Of a stretch of 29,615 nucleotides of DNA, positions 1 through 29,615 are shown piece by piece. The notes below the pieces were generated by a model that was not told the DNA's origin, made no database searches, and saw only the letters and a program-made list of their open reading frames with translations. The position numbers were made by a program, and so were the translations under genes. How positions within the stretch are numbered: the first letter of the stretch is position 1; every line of letters begins with the position of its first letter. Source of the DNA: a virus. Taxonomy: Duplodnaviria; Heunggongvirae; Uroviricota; Caudoviricetes. The stretch is from positions 1 through 29,615 of IMG/VR virus record IMGVR_UViG_2654587686_000021; one strand, written 5' to 3'.

Positions 1-1209
1 ATGTCGGTTTTTCATAACTGGCTGCTTGATATCGCAAGCGGGAATTACTTTATCTACATCAAACGCCTTTCTGCAAACGACACAGGCGCAACAGGTGGCC
101 ATCAGGTCGGACTTTATATCCCCTCAAATATCGTTGAAAAGCTTTTTCCATCTATCAATCATACTCGCGAACTGAACCCTTCAGTCTTCCTTACTGCGCA
201 TGTATCATCCCATGATTGCCCTGATACCCAAGCACGCGCAATTTATTACAACAACCGTTATTTTGGTAAGACCCGAAACGAAAAAAGAATTACGCGCTGG
301 GGGAGAGGAAGTCCATTACAGAACCCTGAAAATACAGGAGCCCTCACAATTCTTGCTTTCAGGTTAAACGAACAGAACACTGACTGTTCCGAGGTAGATA
401 TATGGGTCTGCGTCAATCCCGATGAAGAGGATATCATCGAGTCTGCTATTGGCGAAATCATACCTGGAACCCTAATTTCCGGCCCTGCCGGACAAATTTT
501 GGGCGGATTGTCTCTTCAGCAAACTCCAGTAAATCATAAATATGTTATTCCTGAAGACTGGAAGAAGCGTTTTCCTTCTGGAAACGAAATTATTCAATAT
601 GCTGCTGGCCATTATGCTAAAAACTCCAAGGATCCAGATGAGCAACTGATTGACCGTCGGCGTGTCGAGTATGATATTTTTCTACTCGTCGAGGAATTAC
701 ATGTTCTTGATATTATTAAGAAAGGATTCGATTCTGTAGATGAGTTTATTGCATTAGCCAACTCTGTCAGTAATCGACGTAAATCAAGGGCAGGTAAATC
801 ACTTGAACTTCACCTAGAGAAGCTTTTTATCGAGCACGGACTACGGCATTTCTCCACTCAGGCAGTTACTGAAGGTAATAAAAAACCAGATTTCCTGTTT
901 CCTTCAGCAGAGGCATATCATAACGTTGAATTTCCTGTAGAAAACTTACGTATGCTGGCAGTAAAGACCACCTGCAAAGATCGCTGGCGTCAGATACTGA
1001 ATGAAGCAGATAAAATCCATCAGGTACATTTATTTACGCTGCAAGAAGGTGTTTCTTCAGCACAATACCGGGAAATGAAAGATGCGGGTGTCAGACTCGT
1101 TGTACCATCAACTTTACATAAAAAATACCCAGAAGCAGTTAGAGAAGAATTAATAACGCTCGGAGCATTCATTACTGAGCTGATAGAACTTTACGCTGAA
1201 CTATCATAG
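1..1209 (+). CDS. ecoRIIR: Type IIE restriction endonuclease, EcoRII-like (CCWGG)
   Basis: 402-aa ORF starting exactly at window base 1. N-terminus MSVFHNWLL...KRLSANDTGATGGHQVGLYIP matches my recollection of R.EcoRII (about 404 aa). Convergent with a Dcm/M.EcoRII-family methyltransferase 35 bp away. Upstream region is outside the window. Confidence 0.75.
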   Translation: MSVFHNWLLDIASGNYFIYIKRLSANDTGATGGHQVGLYIPSNIVEKLFPSINHTRELNPSVFLTAHVSSHDCPDTQARAIYYNNRYFGKTRNEKRITRWGRGSPLQNPENTGALTILAFRLNEQNTDCSEVDIWVCVNPDEEDIIESAIGEIIPGTLISGPAGQILGGLSLQQTPVNHKYVIPEDWKKRFPSGNEIIQYAAGHYAKNSKDPDEQLIDRRRVEYDIFLLVEELHVLDIIKKGFDSVDEFIALANSVSNRRKSRAGKSLELHLEKLFIEHGLRHFSTQAVTEGNKKPDFLFPSAEAYHNVEFPVENLRMLAVKTTCKDRWRQILNEADKIHQVHLFTLQEGVSSAQYREMKDAGVRLVVPSTLHKKYPEAVREELITLGAFITELIELYAELS

Positions 1210-1214
1210 GCTGA

Positions 1215-1237
1215 CTCCCGGCTTAAAAGGCCGGGAG
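1215..1237. terminator. Hairpin between convergent R and M genes (8-bp stem ctcccggc/gccgggag, 7-nt loop)
   Basis: Perfect inverted repeat seen directly between R stop (1209) and M stop (1244). No strong U-tract on either side, so terminator function is uncertain. Confidence 0.4.
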
Positions 1238-1243
1238 GTGTTC

Positions 1244-2677
1244 TCAAGGCTGCCCAGTCTTACCAGCATCAGCAGAAACAGCTTTGAGGATATAGGGTTC
1301 CAGAAGTCTGGCAACGGCTTCAAATACTGGCACCACAACGGAGTTACCGAACTGCCGATATGACTGAGTATCTGAAACCGGAATACGGAATGGTTTCCCT
1401 CCAGGTTTTTCAAACCCCATAAGGCGTGCGCACTCTCGGGGAGTCAGCCTGCGTGGTCGACGAGCCTGGTTACTCTCATTCATAAAGTCAGCCTCTCCCG
1501 TTGCCATATCCCAACCACGATCAATAAGAATTTCTGATCCGTCTTTGTGATATCTGGCAGAAAGTGTGCGTGCAATGCTTTCCTTATTCTCAGGATTGAC
1601 CAACCCAAAGCCAAAACCATTCCCCTTGGCTGCATGCTTTTTGGCGTAGTTATAAAGGTACTCCCATAGTTTTGGCGTAAGTATATATTTACTGTCGACT
1701 ACAGGCTCCAGCAATTCACCAAATGATGGGCGGTGTTCCGGATAAAAACGACTGATATCACGCAAGGTAAACCCCTTGTGAATATTCAGATCTCGTCTAA
1801 ATCCGACCAGAACAATGCGTTCACGATGCTGAGGCAAAAAATGCTTCCCATCGATAATCTTTGGATCGTTTTTTCCCATTTCTGCAGCATCGGCAACTTC
1901 GTAGCCCAGCTCGTCAAGGGTCTCCATAATGACTTTGAAAGTTTTACCCTTATCATGGCTCTTCAGATTTTTGACATTTTCCAGCACAAAAATTGCCGGT
2001 TTTTTTGCTCGTATAATACGTGCCACGTCAAAAAAAAGTGTTCCTTGTGCTTCACATTCAAAACCATGCGCACGACCAAGTGAGTTTTTCTTACTAACAC
2101 CAGCAAGGCTAAATGGCTGGCACGGGAACCCCGCAAGAAGCACATCATGATCCGGCACATGCTCATCAATATATGCATAAGCATCCGTTTCCAATACATC
2201 GGTTTTATCACTCAGCGTGACTTCCCGAATATCGAGATTGAATTTATGCACCTGTTCATCGTTAAACCAGTTGGCCTTGTATGTACGCACAGCATCTTTA
2301 TTCCATTCACTGGTAAAAACACACTGGCCTCCAATGGCCTCAAAACCTTTCCGTATCCCTCCAATTCCAGCAAATAAGTCAATGAAGCGGAAAGCATATT
2401 CCGGATGGTTTGCAGGTGGTTCTGGTAGCATCTTACGCAGAAGAGACTCTTCTACTGAAGTCAACGATTTTGGTAAACACTTGCCATTAATCCAGCGGTT
2501 GATGGTTTCACGGCTCCACTCATTTTTTCCGACTTTTCTCAGTAATTCAGCCACATACTTCTGATCATAGATTTCCAGCACTTTCTCGATAAGCTTTTTA
2601 TCATTTTCCTGTCGCAGCTTTTCTTCCGCCTCGGCTTCCTTCAGCAGATGCTGTGCCAACACTTCAAATTCAGACAT
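1244..2677 (-). CDS. ecoRIIM: DNA cytosine-5 methyltransferase, Dcm/M.EcoRII family (CCWGG-specific)
   Basis: C5-MTase motifs in the translation: [10 protein letters not shown] (motif I, AdoMet binding), [11 protein letters not shown] (motif IV, catalytic Cys), ENVKNL (motif VI), [10 protein letters not shown] (motif X). Start moved from ORF-track 2719 to the ATG at 2677 (MSEFEVLAQ...), which has a GGAGGA ribosome-binding site 4 nt upstream and gives 477 aa. Confidence 0.88.
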
Positions 2678-3080
2678 AATTCCTCCAAGGGGTCTAATGG
2701 GTGAAACTCTATCACTCATTCAACCCAGAAGGAAATGTTTTATCTGGATATTTAAACAGTGACTACAACGTAATCTAGCACTGGTGATGCTTTGTTAGGC
2801 ATAGAGAATCATTCTATATACGACTAATGACAGAAAAACAGCAGACAAGTAGTTTGTTCATAAATTAACGCATACTACGTGCCTACGGTTTTCGAGACCG
2901 GTCCAATCATCAAACGAAACATAAAATTAGCTCACATTATGAGGAAAAGTATCTTTTTTGTACTATGTAAATTCAAAGGCTTAGCCTCATTTCTCCGATG
3001 TTTTTCTCAACACTACTGGTTGTGAGCCCTTGCAATGTTCATTAATATACGTCTCACAAATAATTCATAGATATTGCAAA

Positions 3081-28602: not shown

Positions 28603-28616
28603 CTTTCTCCACCAAA

Positions 28617-29522
28617 TCAGGCCAACACCCCAATCGCCAGCGCGCGATCGATAAAACGAAATATCAGCTCCAGTTGGGAGCCATACTTCTCTTCAAATGC
28701 CACGGTATCCGCATGCAGCTCGTCGTGATGCTTTCTGCACAAAGGCAACACAAAGAGGTCATGCGCTTTTGTACCCATTCCACCCTGACCGTGACCTATC
28801 AGGTGGTGGGGATCATCAGCAGGCTTTCCACAACATGCACACGGCTGTGTCTTAACCCAGCGCGTGTACTTTTCATTAACCCAGCGGCGGCGTTTTGGGC
28901 GTAACATAAAAGACTCCAGCGACTCCGGATCCACTTTCAGCGCCAGCACCTTTTTCGCTTTATCCTGGATAATGCTGGTGGCAGGAACCGAAGGCACAAG
29001 GTCACTTTCCCGGGTGACCGCCTGCACAACAGGCTTCGGTAATCTCAGTGCCTTACGGGCTGCACTTTCCGGTAAGGCATCCGCCAGGTCATTACGAATC
29101 AGCCACCAGCACAGTTCCGGTATTGTCACAACGTGACTATCATCAAAACCGAGATCCCGACGCACAACAGACAACACCCAGCGGGCACAGTTATCCGTTG
29201 CCATTGATTCCAGCCGTTCCGTGAACTGATCGCGCAGCTGGTTATCGCAGTGCCAGCACAAACGGATTGCGCCCGGAGCGTGTCGCATTGTTGTCATGTT
29301 CTCGCTGTGCCAGTCGGAATGAGGCCACTGGCAGCCTTTTTCACGAAGTAACCAGCTTTCAAGACATTCCACGCCACCAGCACGACGGATCACTGCCTCA
29401 TTGCGGAATACGGCCCGAACGGCAGGATCATCCGCCAGCGGTTGTGATGCCGCCGGAACGGCACCACTGGCGAAAGATGAATAACGTTCCGGCTCAGGCT
29501 CCAGCAGGACACGCCCCTGCAT
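28617..29522 (-). CDS. Lambdoid nin-region protein with C-terminal Cys/His-rich HNH-like motif (DUF968/YdfU-like, from memory)
   Basis: 301 aa; C-terminus CACCGKPADDPHHLIGHGQGGMGTKAHDLFVLPLCRKHHDELH; immediately upstream of Q. Confidence 0.5.
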   Translation of the reverse strand: MQGRVLLEPEPERYSSFASGAVPAASQPLADDPAVRAVFRNEAVIRRAGGVECLESWLLREKGCQWPHSDWHSENMTTMRHAPGAIRLCWHCDNQLRDQFTERLESMATDNCARWVLSVVRRDLGFDDSHVVTIPELCWWLIRNDLADALPESAARKALRLPKPVVQAVTRESDLVPSVPATSIIQDKAKKVLALKVDPESLESFMLRPKRRRWVNEKYTRWVKTQPCACCGKPADDPHHLIGHGQGGMGTKAHDLFVLPLCRKHHDELHADTVAFEEKYGSQLELIFRFIDRALAIGVLA

Positions 29523-29528
29523 AAACCT

Positions 29529-29559
29529 GTCTCTTGATCAGATCTCCTGATCAAGAGAC
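29529..29559. repeat. Perfect 13-bp inverted repeat with 5-bp spacer (gtctcttgatcag atctc ctgatcaagagac)
   Basis: Seen directly; spans the stop codon of the upstream partial ORF and lies 7 bp from the ATG of the DUF968-like gene. Confidence 0.7.
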
Positions 29560-29615
29560 TTCATCACCAGGTAACCCTCAACCATATCCTGAAGTCTGAA
29601 CCAGCCATCCCACAT
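29538..29615 (-). CDS. Small or partial ORF at window edge (MWDGWFRLQDMVEGYLVMKSLDQEI)
   Basis: In frame from an ATG at the last three bases of the window to a TGA inside the palindrome; may be the 3' end of a longer gene continuing past the window. Confidence 0.25.
   Translation of the reverse strand: MWDGWFRLQDMVEGYLVMKSLDQEI

Follow-up and report, generated by a model that had tools for sequence, protein, structure and literature searches.

The stretch of DNA analyzed here (hereinafter the window) comprises the 29,615 nucleotides (nt) at positions 1-29,615 of the viral record IMGVR_UViG_2654587686_000021. Its backbone is a phage late operon read from right to left on the minus strand, in which the antiterminator gene Q, a leader, the lysis genes, an HNH endonuclease and the terminase, and the head, tail, and fibre genes follow one another in that order, and into which four stretches of low GC content are set (Table 1). 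From left to right these stretches code for an EcoRII-type restriction-modification (R-M) pair with the single-gene restriction system PD-T4-3/CMoRE (slot 1), a 176-amino-acid (aa) protein predicted to be membrane-anchored (slot 2), a 252-aa protein (slot 3), and a DUF6731-family protein with an adjoining protein of four hydrophobic segments, which together resemble the RexAB pair of lambda in fold and architecture (slot 4).

Our surveys covered 50,697 phage records and 5,426 complete Escherichia coli genomes. In megablast searches of the former, the serotype-converting Shigella flexneri phages SfII, SfI, SfIV, and SfV and the E. coli phages vB_EcoM-689R6 (689R6) and 720R4 match positions ~6004-23949/24302 of the window at 97.0-97.6% nt identity, and the gene order across the terminase, head, tail, and baseplate is common to the window, the Sf phages, 689R6, and 720R4. 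The top match among the E. coli genomes is strain R12, with 92% coverage at 98.2%, and its prophage is 98-99% identical to the window at the nt level. High nt identity is thus combined with synteny over the packaging, head, and tail modules, the hallmark of the SfV-like group, and we place the window with good confidence within an intact-looking, SfV/SfII-like temperate myovirus prophage of an E. coli-type chromosome.

Composition and polymorphism of the cargo slots

A first-pass annotation, made from the sequence alone, had judged the four stretches by eye to be AT-rich cargo insertions. Computation of the sliding-window GC and of the GC content at third codon positions (GC3) confirms a real and sharp contrast: the backbone (6004-11364 plus 12039-24311) has a GC of 0.557, ranging from 53 to 61% in a 500-bp sliding profile, no backbone window of equal length falls under 0.494, and the GC3 of the cargo genes is 0.30-0.43 versus 0.54-0.69 for the backbone genes. 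The GC content jumps within 100 bp at 11365, 12038, 24312, and 25219. Two further segments that vary among the relatives are likewise low in GC, namely pin with the fibre genes (3911-6003, 0.449) and Q (28234-28602, 0.431).

The slot boundaries were taken from homology breakpoints in local blastn comparisons with the relatives. The edges proposed earlier for slot 2 prove essentially exact, and the left edge of slot 4 (26640) had been set ~80-90 bp too far to the left, taking in the conserved backbone element at 26641-26730. The stretch 1-3860, formerly taken as a single insertion, resolves into two independent units: many genomes carry CMoRE and pin without the R-M pair. The earlier placement of every insertion at a module junction fails for slot 2, which sits within the tail module, flanked by the tape-measure and DNA-circulation genes.

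Alignment of close relatives agrees with the earlier view of the stretches as variable cargo and not core genes, with each being present, absent, or replaced at the same position. In slot 1, the R-M pair, CMoRE, and pin occur together in 241 genomes; others, including O157 strains, have CMoRE and pin without R-M, and in e14 and 689R6 it is McrA that lies beside pin. In slot 2, 172 of the 1093 junction-bearing E. coli genomes have the 176-aa gene, and most of the others have a gap of ~60 bp; the remaining occupants include a bPH (bacterial PH-domain) protein, tRNA_anti-like OB-fold proteins encoded on the opposite strand, and a secreted 164-aa protein, the genes for these alternatives having a GC of 31-39%. 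The slot 3 cargo is found with both flanks in 23 genomes; in SfII this slot holds IS911 and the PADLOC candidate PDC-S45, and in other prophages iss/bor. The slot 4 cargo is present in 73 genomes; elsewhere, what lies between the same Q and holin is a KAP NTPase (PADLOC PDC-S20, PifA-like), a serine protease of the SDH family, or a DUF6731 pair of 45% identity, and in SfII the slot is occupied by PDC-M53A/B, also antisense to the late operon. That such slots carry defence genes, as had been anticipated, is seen with PADLOC both here and in the relatives. None of the four cargo stretches is found in SfII, SfV, and 689R6, which are functional phages, and no complete E. coli genome holds all four cargos together, the best coverage being 92%.

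Morons, as defined in HK97 and HK022, consist of a gene with its own promoter and terminator and a deviant GC that is expressed from the repressed prophage (Juhala et al. 2000; Cumby et al. 2012; reviewed in PMC3594210). Between flanks that are 94-98% identical, each of the four slots differs in content among the relatives, so that these contents qualify as extra DNA in the moron sense, and their GC of 0.34-0.43 versus 0.557 likewise agrees with this class. Of the promoter and terminator anatomy, terminators follow the slot 2 and slot 3 genes, and a promoter-like site, of a type that is not enriched, precedes the slot 2 gene only. Hairpins or terminators had been proposed as the bounds of every insertion; they are found at the downstream ends of slot 2 (11399-11374) and slot 3 (24344-24319) and on both sides of slot 4, and at none of the slot 1 edges or the upstream edges of slots 2 and 3. 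As the totals of terminator-like sites do not exceed the shuffled expectation (17 versus 15.0; 20 versus 15.9), only individual long-stem terminators at gene ends were used. Because the GC contrast is present and the genes show no conserved core synteny, we consider it highly probable that these are low-GC cassettes gained by horizontal transfer at fixed inter-gene slots that are empty or differently filled in relatives.

Table 1. Features of the 29,615-nt window, with slot edges from homology breakpoints
Feature	Position	Strand	GC	Remarks
Low-GC stretch, slot 1	1-3860		0.430	z -11.8; slot in two units, 1 to ~2880 and 2883-3910
Low-GC stretch, slot 2	11365-12038		0.337	z -9.1; slot 11359/11383 to 12038/12044
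Low-GC stretch, slot 3	24312-25219		0.352	z -9.2; slot 24303/24327 to 25286 or 25683
Low-GC stretch, slot 4	26640-28230		0.397	z -8.8; slot 26717/26731 to 28234
R.EcoRII-type type IIE restriction endonuclease	1-1209	+		402 aa; Pfam EcoRII-N + EcoRII-C (PF09217, PF09019)
C5 cytosine methyltransferase, Dcm/M.EcoRII subfamily	1244-2719	-		convergent with the endonuclease gene; Pfam DNA_methylase (PF00145), DNA_meth_N
PD-T4-3/CMoRE, type IV GIY-YIG restriction endonuclease	3081-3854	+		257 aa; single-gene system
Pin-type serine DNA invertase (e14 pinE-like)	3912-4502	-		Pfam Resolvase + HTH_7
Invertible tail-fibre segment	4528-6070	.		68-nt inverted repeats 4528-4595 and 6003-6070; variable among relatives
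Mu-type baseplate and DNA-circulation genes (gp43-48 equivalents)	6358-11361	-	0.571	backbone; Pfam DNA_circ_N, GpP-like, Baseplate_J
Cargo 2 moron	11374-12010	-	0.337	promoter-like site 12010-11983; gene 11947-11417 (176 aa); terminator 11399-11374
Tape-measure, tail assembly, tube, sheath, tail-completion, head-tail connector	12039-18268	-		backbone; Pfam sheath domains, R12/SfII/689R6 annotation
HK97-type head and packaging: capsid, S78 protease, portal, YmfR, TerL, P27-family TerS, HNH endonuclease	18317-24300	-
Cargo 3	24319-25138	-	0.352	gene 25138-24380 (252 aa, cytoplasmic), then terminator 24344-24319
Lysis cassette	25220-26489	-	0.494	holin 26489-26163; lysozyme 26159-25677; Rz spanin 25684-25220
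Conserved non-coding element	26641-26730	-		70-90 bp; terminator hairpin 26663-26642; marks the true left edge of cargo 4
Cargo 4 gene A, DUF6731-family protein, RexA/RdgC-like predicted fold	26786-27727	+		313 aa; antisense to the late operon
Cargo 4 gene B, inner-membrane protein with four hydrophobic segments	27737-28198	+		153 aa; from hydropathy and alignment to partners and RexB
Palindromic hairpin	28198-28227	.		perfect palindrome between the convergent stops of gene B and Q
Q antiterminator, PF06530 family	28234-28602	-	0.431	Pfam
DUF968/YdfU HNH-like protein	28617-29522	-		backbone early-right operon; Pfam DUF968

A candidate RexAB-like pair convergent with Q

The protein encoded by gene A of slot 4 has no Pfam match of its own; a protein with 45% identity to it does reach the Pfam family DUF6731, and many homologues carry this domain (PF20505), of which we found no mention in the literature searched. 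A Foldseek search with an AlphaFold2 (AF2) model recovered RexA as the sole significant structural match (E-value 7.3e-7, probability 1.00). The weaker matches of an independent comparison are CHL4, IML3, CENP-N, RdgC, Cas2, and 3OH8, most of which (CHL4, IML3, RdgC, Cas2, and 3OH8, a C. glutamicum epimerase) have been reported as structural neighbours of RexA itself (PMC11077077). As modelled, gene A would thus possess the two-domain RdgC-like fold of RexA. The gene B product has four hydrophobic segments at the positions of the transmembrane (TM) helices of RexB (144 aa), and a four-TM partner adjoins the DUF6731 gene in 8/8 contexts, viz., the window, R12, another E. coli strain, two Pectobacterium, Xenorhabdus, phage cdtI, and a Vibrio Vinavirales element. 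The last of these is Vibrio phage 10N.286.54.F4_PE001, a 14.6-kb, non-tailed member of the Vinavirales, in which a 34%-identical DUF6731 protein and its four-TM partner are encoded at 1389-2896, beside an integrase; hence, the DUF6731 pair moves between very different mobile elements. PADLOC returned no match for the gene A/B pair. Fold and architecture are where the likeness to RexAB lies, as judged on the model, and we lean by a small measure toward the pair working like RexAB while standing outside the RexA and RexB sequence families.

In SfII, positions 35581-37195 carry SfII_50/SfII_49, which code for a soluble protein of ~340 aa and a multi-TM protein, are antisense, have a GC of 0.32, and match the PADLOC candidate PDC-M53A/B. 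SfII_50 was considered as a DUF6731 homologue and rejected, since hhalign finds no such relationship.

The Q gene of the window is convergent with the DUF6731 pair also in Pectobacterium, Xenorhabdus, and phage cdtI, which may mean that Q and the pair are transferred together; other cargo, too, lies next to this Q in E. coli, and in SfII a different Q takes its place. On the other side of the pair lies the conserved non-coding element, which matches no Rfam family and is found in 2947 of the 5426 E. coli genomes. In DLP12 of E. coli K-12, it is located upstream of essD at a distance of 122 bp, and on its far side, at the place that corresponds to slot 4, is an antisense porin gene, which we take to be nmpC. 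This element is probably the late-promoter leader with the tR' terminator of phages with a PF06530-type Q. We read it so, with cargo 4 inserted between Q and the late promoter, because the gap between Q and gene B measures only 35 bp and the flank homology ends at the Q stop codon. A late promoter directly downstream of Q, as in lambda, was rejected: this 35-bp gap between the stop codons is filled by the hairpin, and the homology ends at the Q stop. An ORF (open reading frame) of 87 aa at 26523-26786 (plus strand) was likewise rejected as a fifth cargo gene, since it overlies the conserved leader/terminator element and its PHROG match extends over 21 residues only.

Small cargo genes of slots 2 and 3

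The 176-aa gene lies between the tape-measure stop codon and the start of the DNA-circulation gene, behind a promoter-like site (TTGTAA-16-TAGAAT, with an extended -10 TG) and ahead of an intrinsic terminator with a 10-bp stem and T-run. Residues 3-28 of its product form a single hydrophobic anchor at the N-terminus, and the C-terminal domain of ~148 aa is rich in K and E. The product is predicted to be an inner-membrane protein with an N-in/C-out topology and this domain facing the periplasm, in view of an N-terminal lysine and a hydrophobic stretch longer than a cleaved signal peptide would allow. Only Enterobacterales have homologues, one of which, in Leclercia, is 52% identical and located in the equivalent slot. 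The protein belongs to PHROG 5485, for which no function is annotated, and sequence searches of Pfam, NCBIfam, PADLOC, and the PDB gave no match. By analogy with HK97 gp15, the inner-membrane product of a moron by the tape-measure gene that blocks DNA entry (PMC3594210), we tentatively suggest, with more doubt than confidence, that cargo 2 could act in superinfection exclusion by a similar block. More generally, the tape-measure/DNA-circulation junction of Mu-type tails may be a polymorphic slot for small envelope proteins. In the Leclercia-type prophage (6013-7808 of the stretch compared), genes for proteins of 503 and 94 aa, neither with a Pfam match, are present between the DNA-circulation and baseplate-hub genes, which possibly makes this site one more variable slot of Mu-type tail modules.

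The 252-aa gene of slot 3 starts at the ATG at 25138, as in its homologues and in the R12 annotation. Its product belongs to a large family of 852 clusters (50% identity, E<=1e-3), with D63, Y113, R123, H140, and R147 invariant and H153 nearly so, and no family model matches any of 57 members; searches of Pfam, NCBIfam, PADLOC, PHROG, and PDB sequences with the window protein returned only PHROGs without an assigned function. A 50%-identical homologue is encoded on a Citrobacter-type contig (3501-4268 of the stretch), where the lysis genes meet the terminase in a phage whose terminase is of the lambda type, and a Paraburkholderia homologue adjoins a TIR_2-domain gene (3501-4868 of the stretch). 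A part in defence is plausible for this protein; that it would be a HEPN-like nuclease aborting infection we regard as unlikely.

Restriction systems and the fibre switch of slot 1

The 402-aa endonuclease matches PADLOC REase_II (1.5e-233) and, end to end over 401 residues, the EcoRII structure 1NA6 (E-value 1.3e-242). The methyltransferase, whose start as annotated in R12 corresponds to window position 2677, matches NCBIfam PRK10458 (1.5e-279) and PADLOC MTase_II. The EcoRII-N effector domain, the EcoRII-C catalytic domain, and the adjacent C5 methyltransferase together make up the organization of the type IIE EcoRII system. The downstream ORF matches PADLOC PD-T4-3 (PDLC04031; 2.7e-140) over profile positions 1-255/256 and the E. 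coli O157:H7 CMoRE structures 9U75 (3.7e-172, full length) and 9U7U (1.1e-150). CMoRE is a type IV GIY-YIG nuclease that degrades DNA with 5-hydroxymethylcytosine (5hmC) or glucosyl-hmC, protects versus T-even phages, and has as its hallmarks the motif GIYxY-YIG plus an acidic autoinhibitory loop (PMC12923530). In the window protein the motif takes the form GWYVY...FYVGKG, and the acidic stretch ATDDDELL is assigned, from the sequence alone, as the loop. Going by these matches, the EcoRII-type R-M pair and CMoRE are both already known systems. In a native host, CMoRE was active, and its effect added to that of an R-M island (bioRxiv 2024.12.20.629700).

To judge from its sequence-predicted specificity, the R-M pair would cut CCWGG DNA that lacks methylation, and CMoRE would cut DNA with hydroxymethylated or glucosylated cytosine, the route of T-even phages around R-M. 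The two would in principle be complementary, acting on unmodified and hmC-modified phage DNA, respectively.

The adjoining Pin invertase is 91.7% identical to K-12 pinE and 96.6% to the 689R6 invertase at the nt level. Within the invertible segment are two opposed sets, each with a fibre C-terminus and a fibre-assembly gene (4493-5304, plus strand; 5276-6354, minus strand), with the late-operon terminator at 5271-5244 (minus strand); position 6004 is the exact start of the homology to the Sf phages. The serine invertase, inverted repeats, and alternative fibre C-termini with assembly genes are those of an e14-type Pin switch.

Backbone modules and extent of the prophage

Pfam, NCBIfam, and the annotation of relatives bear out the earlier description of a mosaic with an HK97-type head and packaging module with HNH (Pfam Phage_capsid, Peptidase_S78, Phage_portal, TerL; NCBIfam sm_term_P27), a Mu-type contractile tail (sheath, Mu gp43 [DNA_circ_N], gp44 [GpP], gp47 [Baseplate_J]), and an e14-type switch. 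The regulation and lysis genes had been called lambda-type; the lambdoid Q, holin, lysozyme, and Rz are indeed there, the Q being of the PF06530 family (DLP12 quuD-like) and not of the lambda Q family. The holin (lambda-family), endolysin, and Rz were assigned by PHROG, and the Rz allele is unlike that of SfII. Inside ymfR, which codes for a small membrane protein between the large terminase and portal genes, is a terminator-like hairpin with a 12-bp stem (21543-21570, minus strand); the SfII annotation likewise has a putative terminator at the equivalent site. At the right edge of the window, homology to R12, the Sf phages, and 689R6 ends at 29526/29527, inside the N-terminal part of the DUF968/YdfU gene, and this joint is a further mosaic junction.

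As reported earlier, no integrase lies in the window: general family scans of its ORFs found the Pin serine invertase as the only recombinase. A tRNA scan detected no tRNA or tmRNA gene, and an Rfam scan of the window gave no match. The earlier statement that the prophage continues beyond both ends does not hold. The EcoRII gene, which begins at base 1 of the window, stands outermost among the prophage genes of R12, 234 bp past the 3' end of ssrA, and in this strain the early region, xis, and int lie past the right end, the integrase ~9.4-10.6 kb beyond window base 29615; the integrase being only to the right and EcoRII outermost, the element would continue substantially to the right only. With R12 as the guide, the left edge of the window is essentially the prophage end, and we infer that the window makes up ~73% of a prophage of ~40.7 kb. 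The cargo end of the R12 element abuts ssrA (in the ssrA-to-glaH island region), and its integrase end lies by glaH; in elements that integrate at ssrA, for example CP4-57, the integrase is at the end next to ssrA.

Proposed scheme and rival explanations

The scheme we propose starts from the direct outcomes of the analysis, viz., composition, presence/absence polymorphism, R-M and CMoRE identity, the RexA-like fold, and conservation of the gene pair. In slot 4, a soluble DNA-binding sensor with the RexA fold would detect an infecting phage and then activate its membrane partner, which would depolarize or permeabilize the membrane and bring about abortive infection. The product of the moron gene 11947-11417 could, on a weaker footing, block the DNA entry of superinfecting phages, and cargo 2, 3, and 4 would be expressed in the lysogen with the corresponding phenotypes. 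Taken as a whole, the reading that the DUF6731 pair is a functional RexAB-type abortive-infection system of an undescribed lineage, widely distributed among prophages of the Enterobacterales, usually convergent with a PF06530 Q and also found in Vibrio Vinavirales, that the tape-measure/DNA-circulation junction is a slot for superinfection-blocking envelope proteins, and that the 252-aa family (852 clusters) is a new single-gene defence falls, in our estimate, a little short of evenly balanced.

Several observations weigh against it. The AF2 model of gene A is of moderate confidence, with a predicted local distance difference test score (pLDDT) of 75.5 and a predicted TM-score (pTM) of 0.65, and its global TM-score versus RexA is low (0.34-0.38), probably on account of a differing orientation of the two domains in the model. 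The fold is also that of RdgC and so by itself is no proof of exclusion. Membership in the RexA/RexB sequence families was rejected, with an alignment of 36 DUF6731 members reaching an hhalign probability of 0.5% versus lambda RexA and a BLASTP comparison of the partner with RexB yielding nothing; correspondingly, Pfam RexA (PF15969) and RexB (PF15968) do not match gene A or B at E<=1, and match the lambda proteins at 1e-97 and 8.5e-92. The pair lies between Q and the late-promoter leader and not by cI as lambda rexAB does; some actinophage Rex systems also lie apart from the repressor (PMC11077077). As for the other cargos, promoter-like sites are no commoner in the window than in shuffled sequence, so that transcription of the morons on their own is hypothetical; the 176-aa family keeps its slot across genera, so that it could have a dispensable tail-associated function; and the 252-aa protein has the R-x5-H motif (HEPN R-x4-6-H), with a fold search that does not discriminate it from generic helical bundles. 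The phenotypes of cargo 2-4 and their expression in the lysogen are predictions throughout.

A competing role for the DUF6731 protein, for which lambda RexA acting without RexB is the precedent, would be to modulate recombination or the prophage lysis-lysogeny switch, the membrane partner being unrelated. This is improbable, if not negligibly so, given that the four-TM partner is strictly co-conserved, even in the Vibrio Vinavirales element, where no Q is among the ten annotated genes of a 5.4-kb stretch; moreover, the same slot holds candidate defence genes in relatives, the pair is antisense to the late operon as expected of lysogen-expressed genes, and exclusion is the function of each of the four RexA+RexB-type pairs in which both partners are required. 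The cargo status of the stretches themselves faces two rivals. Were they ancestral conserved phage genes of odd composition, the 176-aa family would be expected to keep its tape-measure/DNA-circulation position in Leclercia at 52% identity, and the DUF6731 pair its position by Q across genera, as both do; yet each stretch is absent or replaced between 94-98%-identical flanks, functional SfII, SfV, and 689R6 lack all of them, the 176-aa gene is found by tblastn in 0/50,697 phage records, and the empty slot 2 and alternative slot 3 and 4 occupants of close relatives refute core status, making this idea scarcely credible. The window might instead be a decayed prophage remnant with chromosomal island material in place of phage genes, which would account for the lack of an integrase or att site in the window and for the island location of the R12 element with its cargo end by ssrA. 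Against this, all late genes of the induced SfII and 689R6 are present as ORFs in the same order at 97% nt identity, the R12 structural genes have no annotated pseudogenes and are accompanied by a complete early region with xis and int ~10 kb on, and the window is free of insertion sequences; we accordingly deem decay quite improbable and retain the reading of horizontally acquired cassettes in an intact-looking prophage.

The architecture of such prophages and the moron concept are textbook matter, and the value of the present analysis lies in a resolved map of the accessory-gene sites of SfV-like phages, with five slots defined to a few bases and their occupancy traced across the E. coli genomes surveyed. 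Five Rex-like systems have been described so far, and the trigger of RexAB is still unexplained 70 years after Benzer (PMC12894663). If the RexAB prediction is true, the DUF6731 pair would add to these systems a family that defence finders currently miss; as a divergent enterobacterial family testable in E. coli, it would provide comparative leverage on the RexAB trigger and fill a gap in defence annotation.

Comparison with known systems

The window shares with the Sf phages, 689R6, and 720R4 cargo slots at the fibre/att end, the Rz/HNH junction, and the Q/holin junction. In contrast to the oac and gtrABC genes at the fibre/att end of the Sf phages, it has the EcoRII-type R-M pair, CMoRE, and the Pin fibre switch; the 176-aa gene lies here at the tape-measure/DNA-circulation junction, where the Sf phages have no insert, and the alleles of Q and Rz and the occupants of slots 3 and 4 also differ. 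The window R-M pair is ~80% identical at the nt level to a homologous plasmid-borne pair of E. coli, and whereas EcoRII of plasmid N3 is plasmid-borne, the pair here is prophage-borne and directly beside CMoRE. With e14, the window has in common a pinE-like invertase, inverted repeats, two fibre sets, and a restriction-type defence gene adjoining pin; in e14 this gene is McrA, which is 5mC-dependent, whereas here it is the hmC-dependent CMoRE, with or without the EcoRII-type R-M pair in different genomes.

The 176-aa protein recalls HK97 gp15 in being a small, predicted inner-membrane protein encoded in the tail operon beside the tape-measure gene. HK97 gene 15, however, is upstream of that gene and the 176-aa gene downstream, and family scans detect no sequence similarity to gp15/YebO. 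Finally, the prophage-borne systems of lambda (RexAB), Sbash, CarolAnn, Butters, and P. putida P1 all have, as does the likewise prophage-borne pair of the window, a gene for a soluble RexA/RdgC-fold protein of ~280-370 aa followed by one for a four-TM protein of ~145-150 aa. Lambda rexAB lies downstream of cI, whereas the window pair is convergent with Q; the P. putida protein RexApp, like gene A, was recognized by structure.

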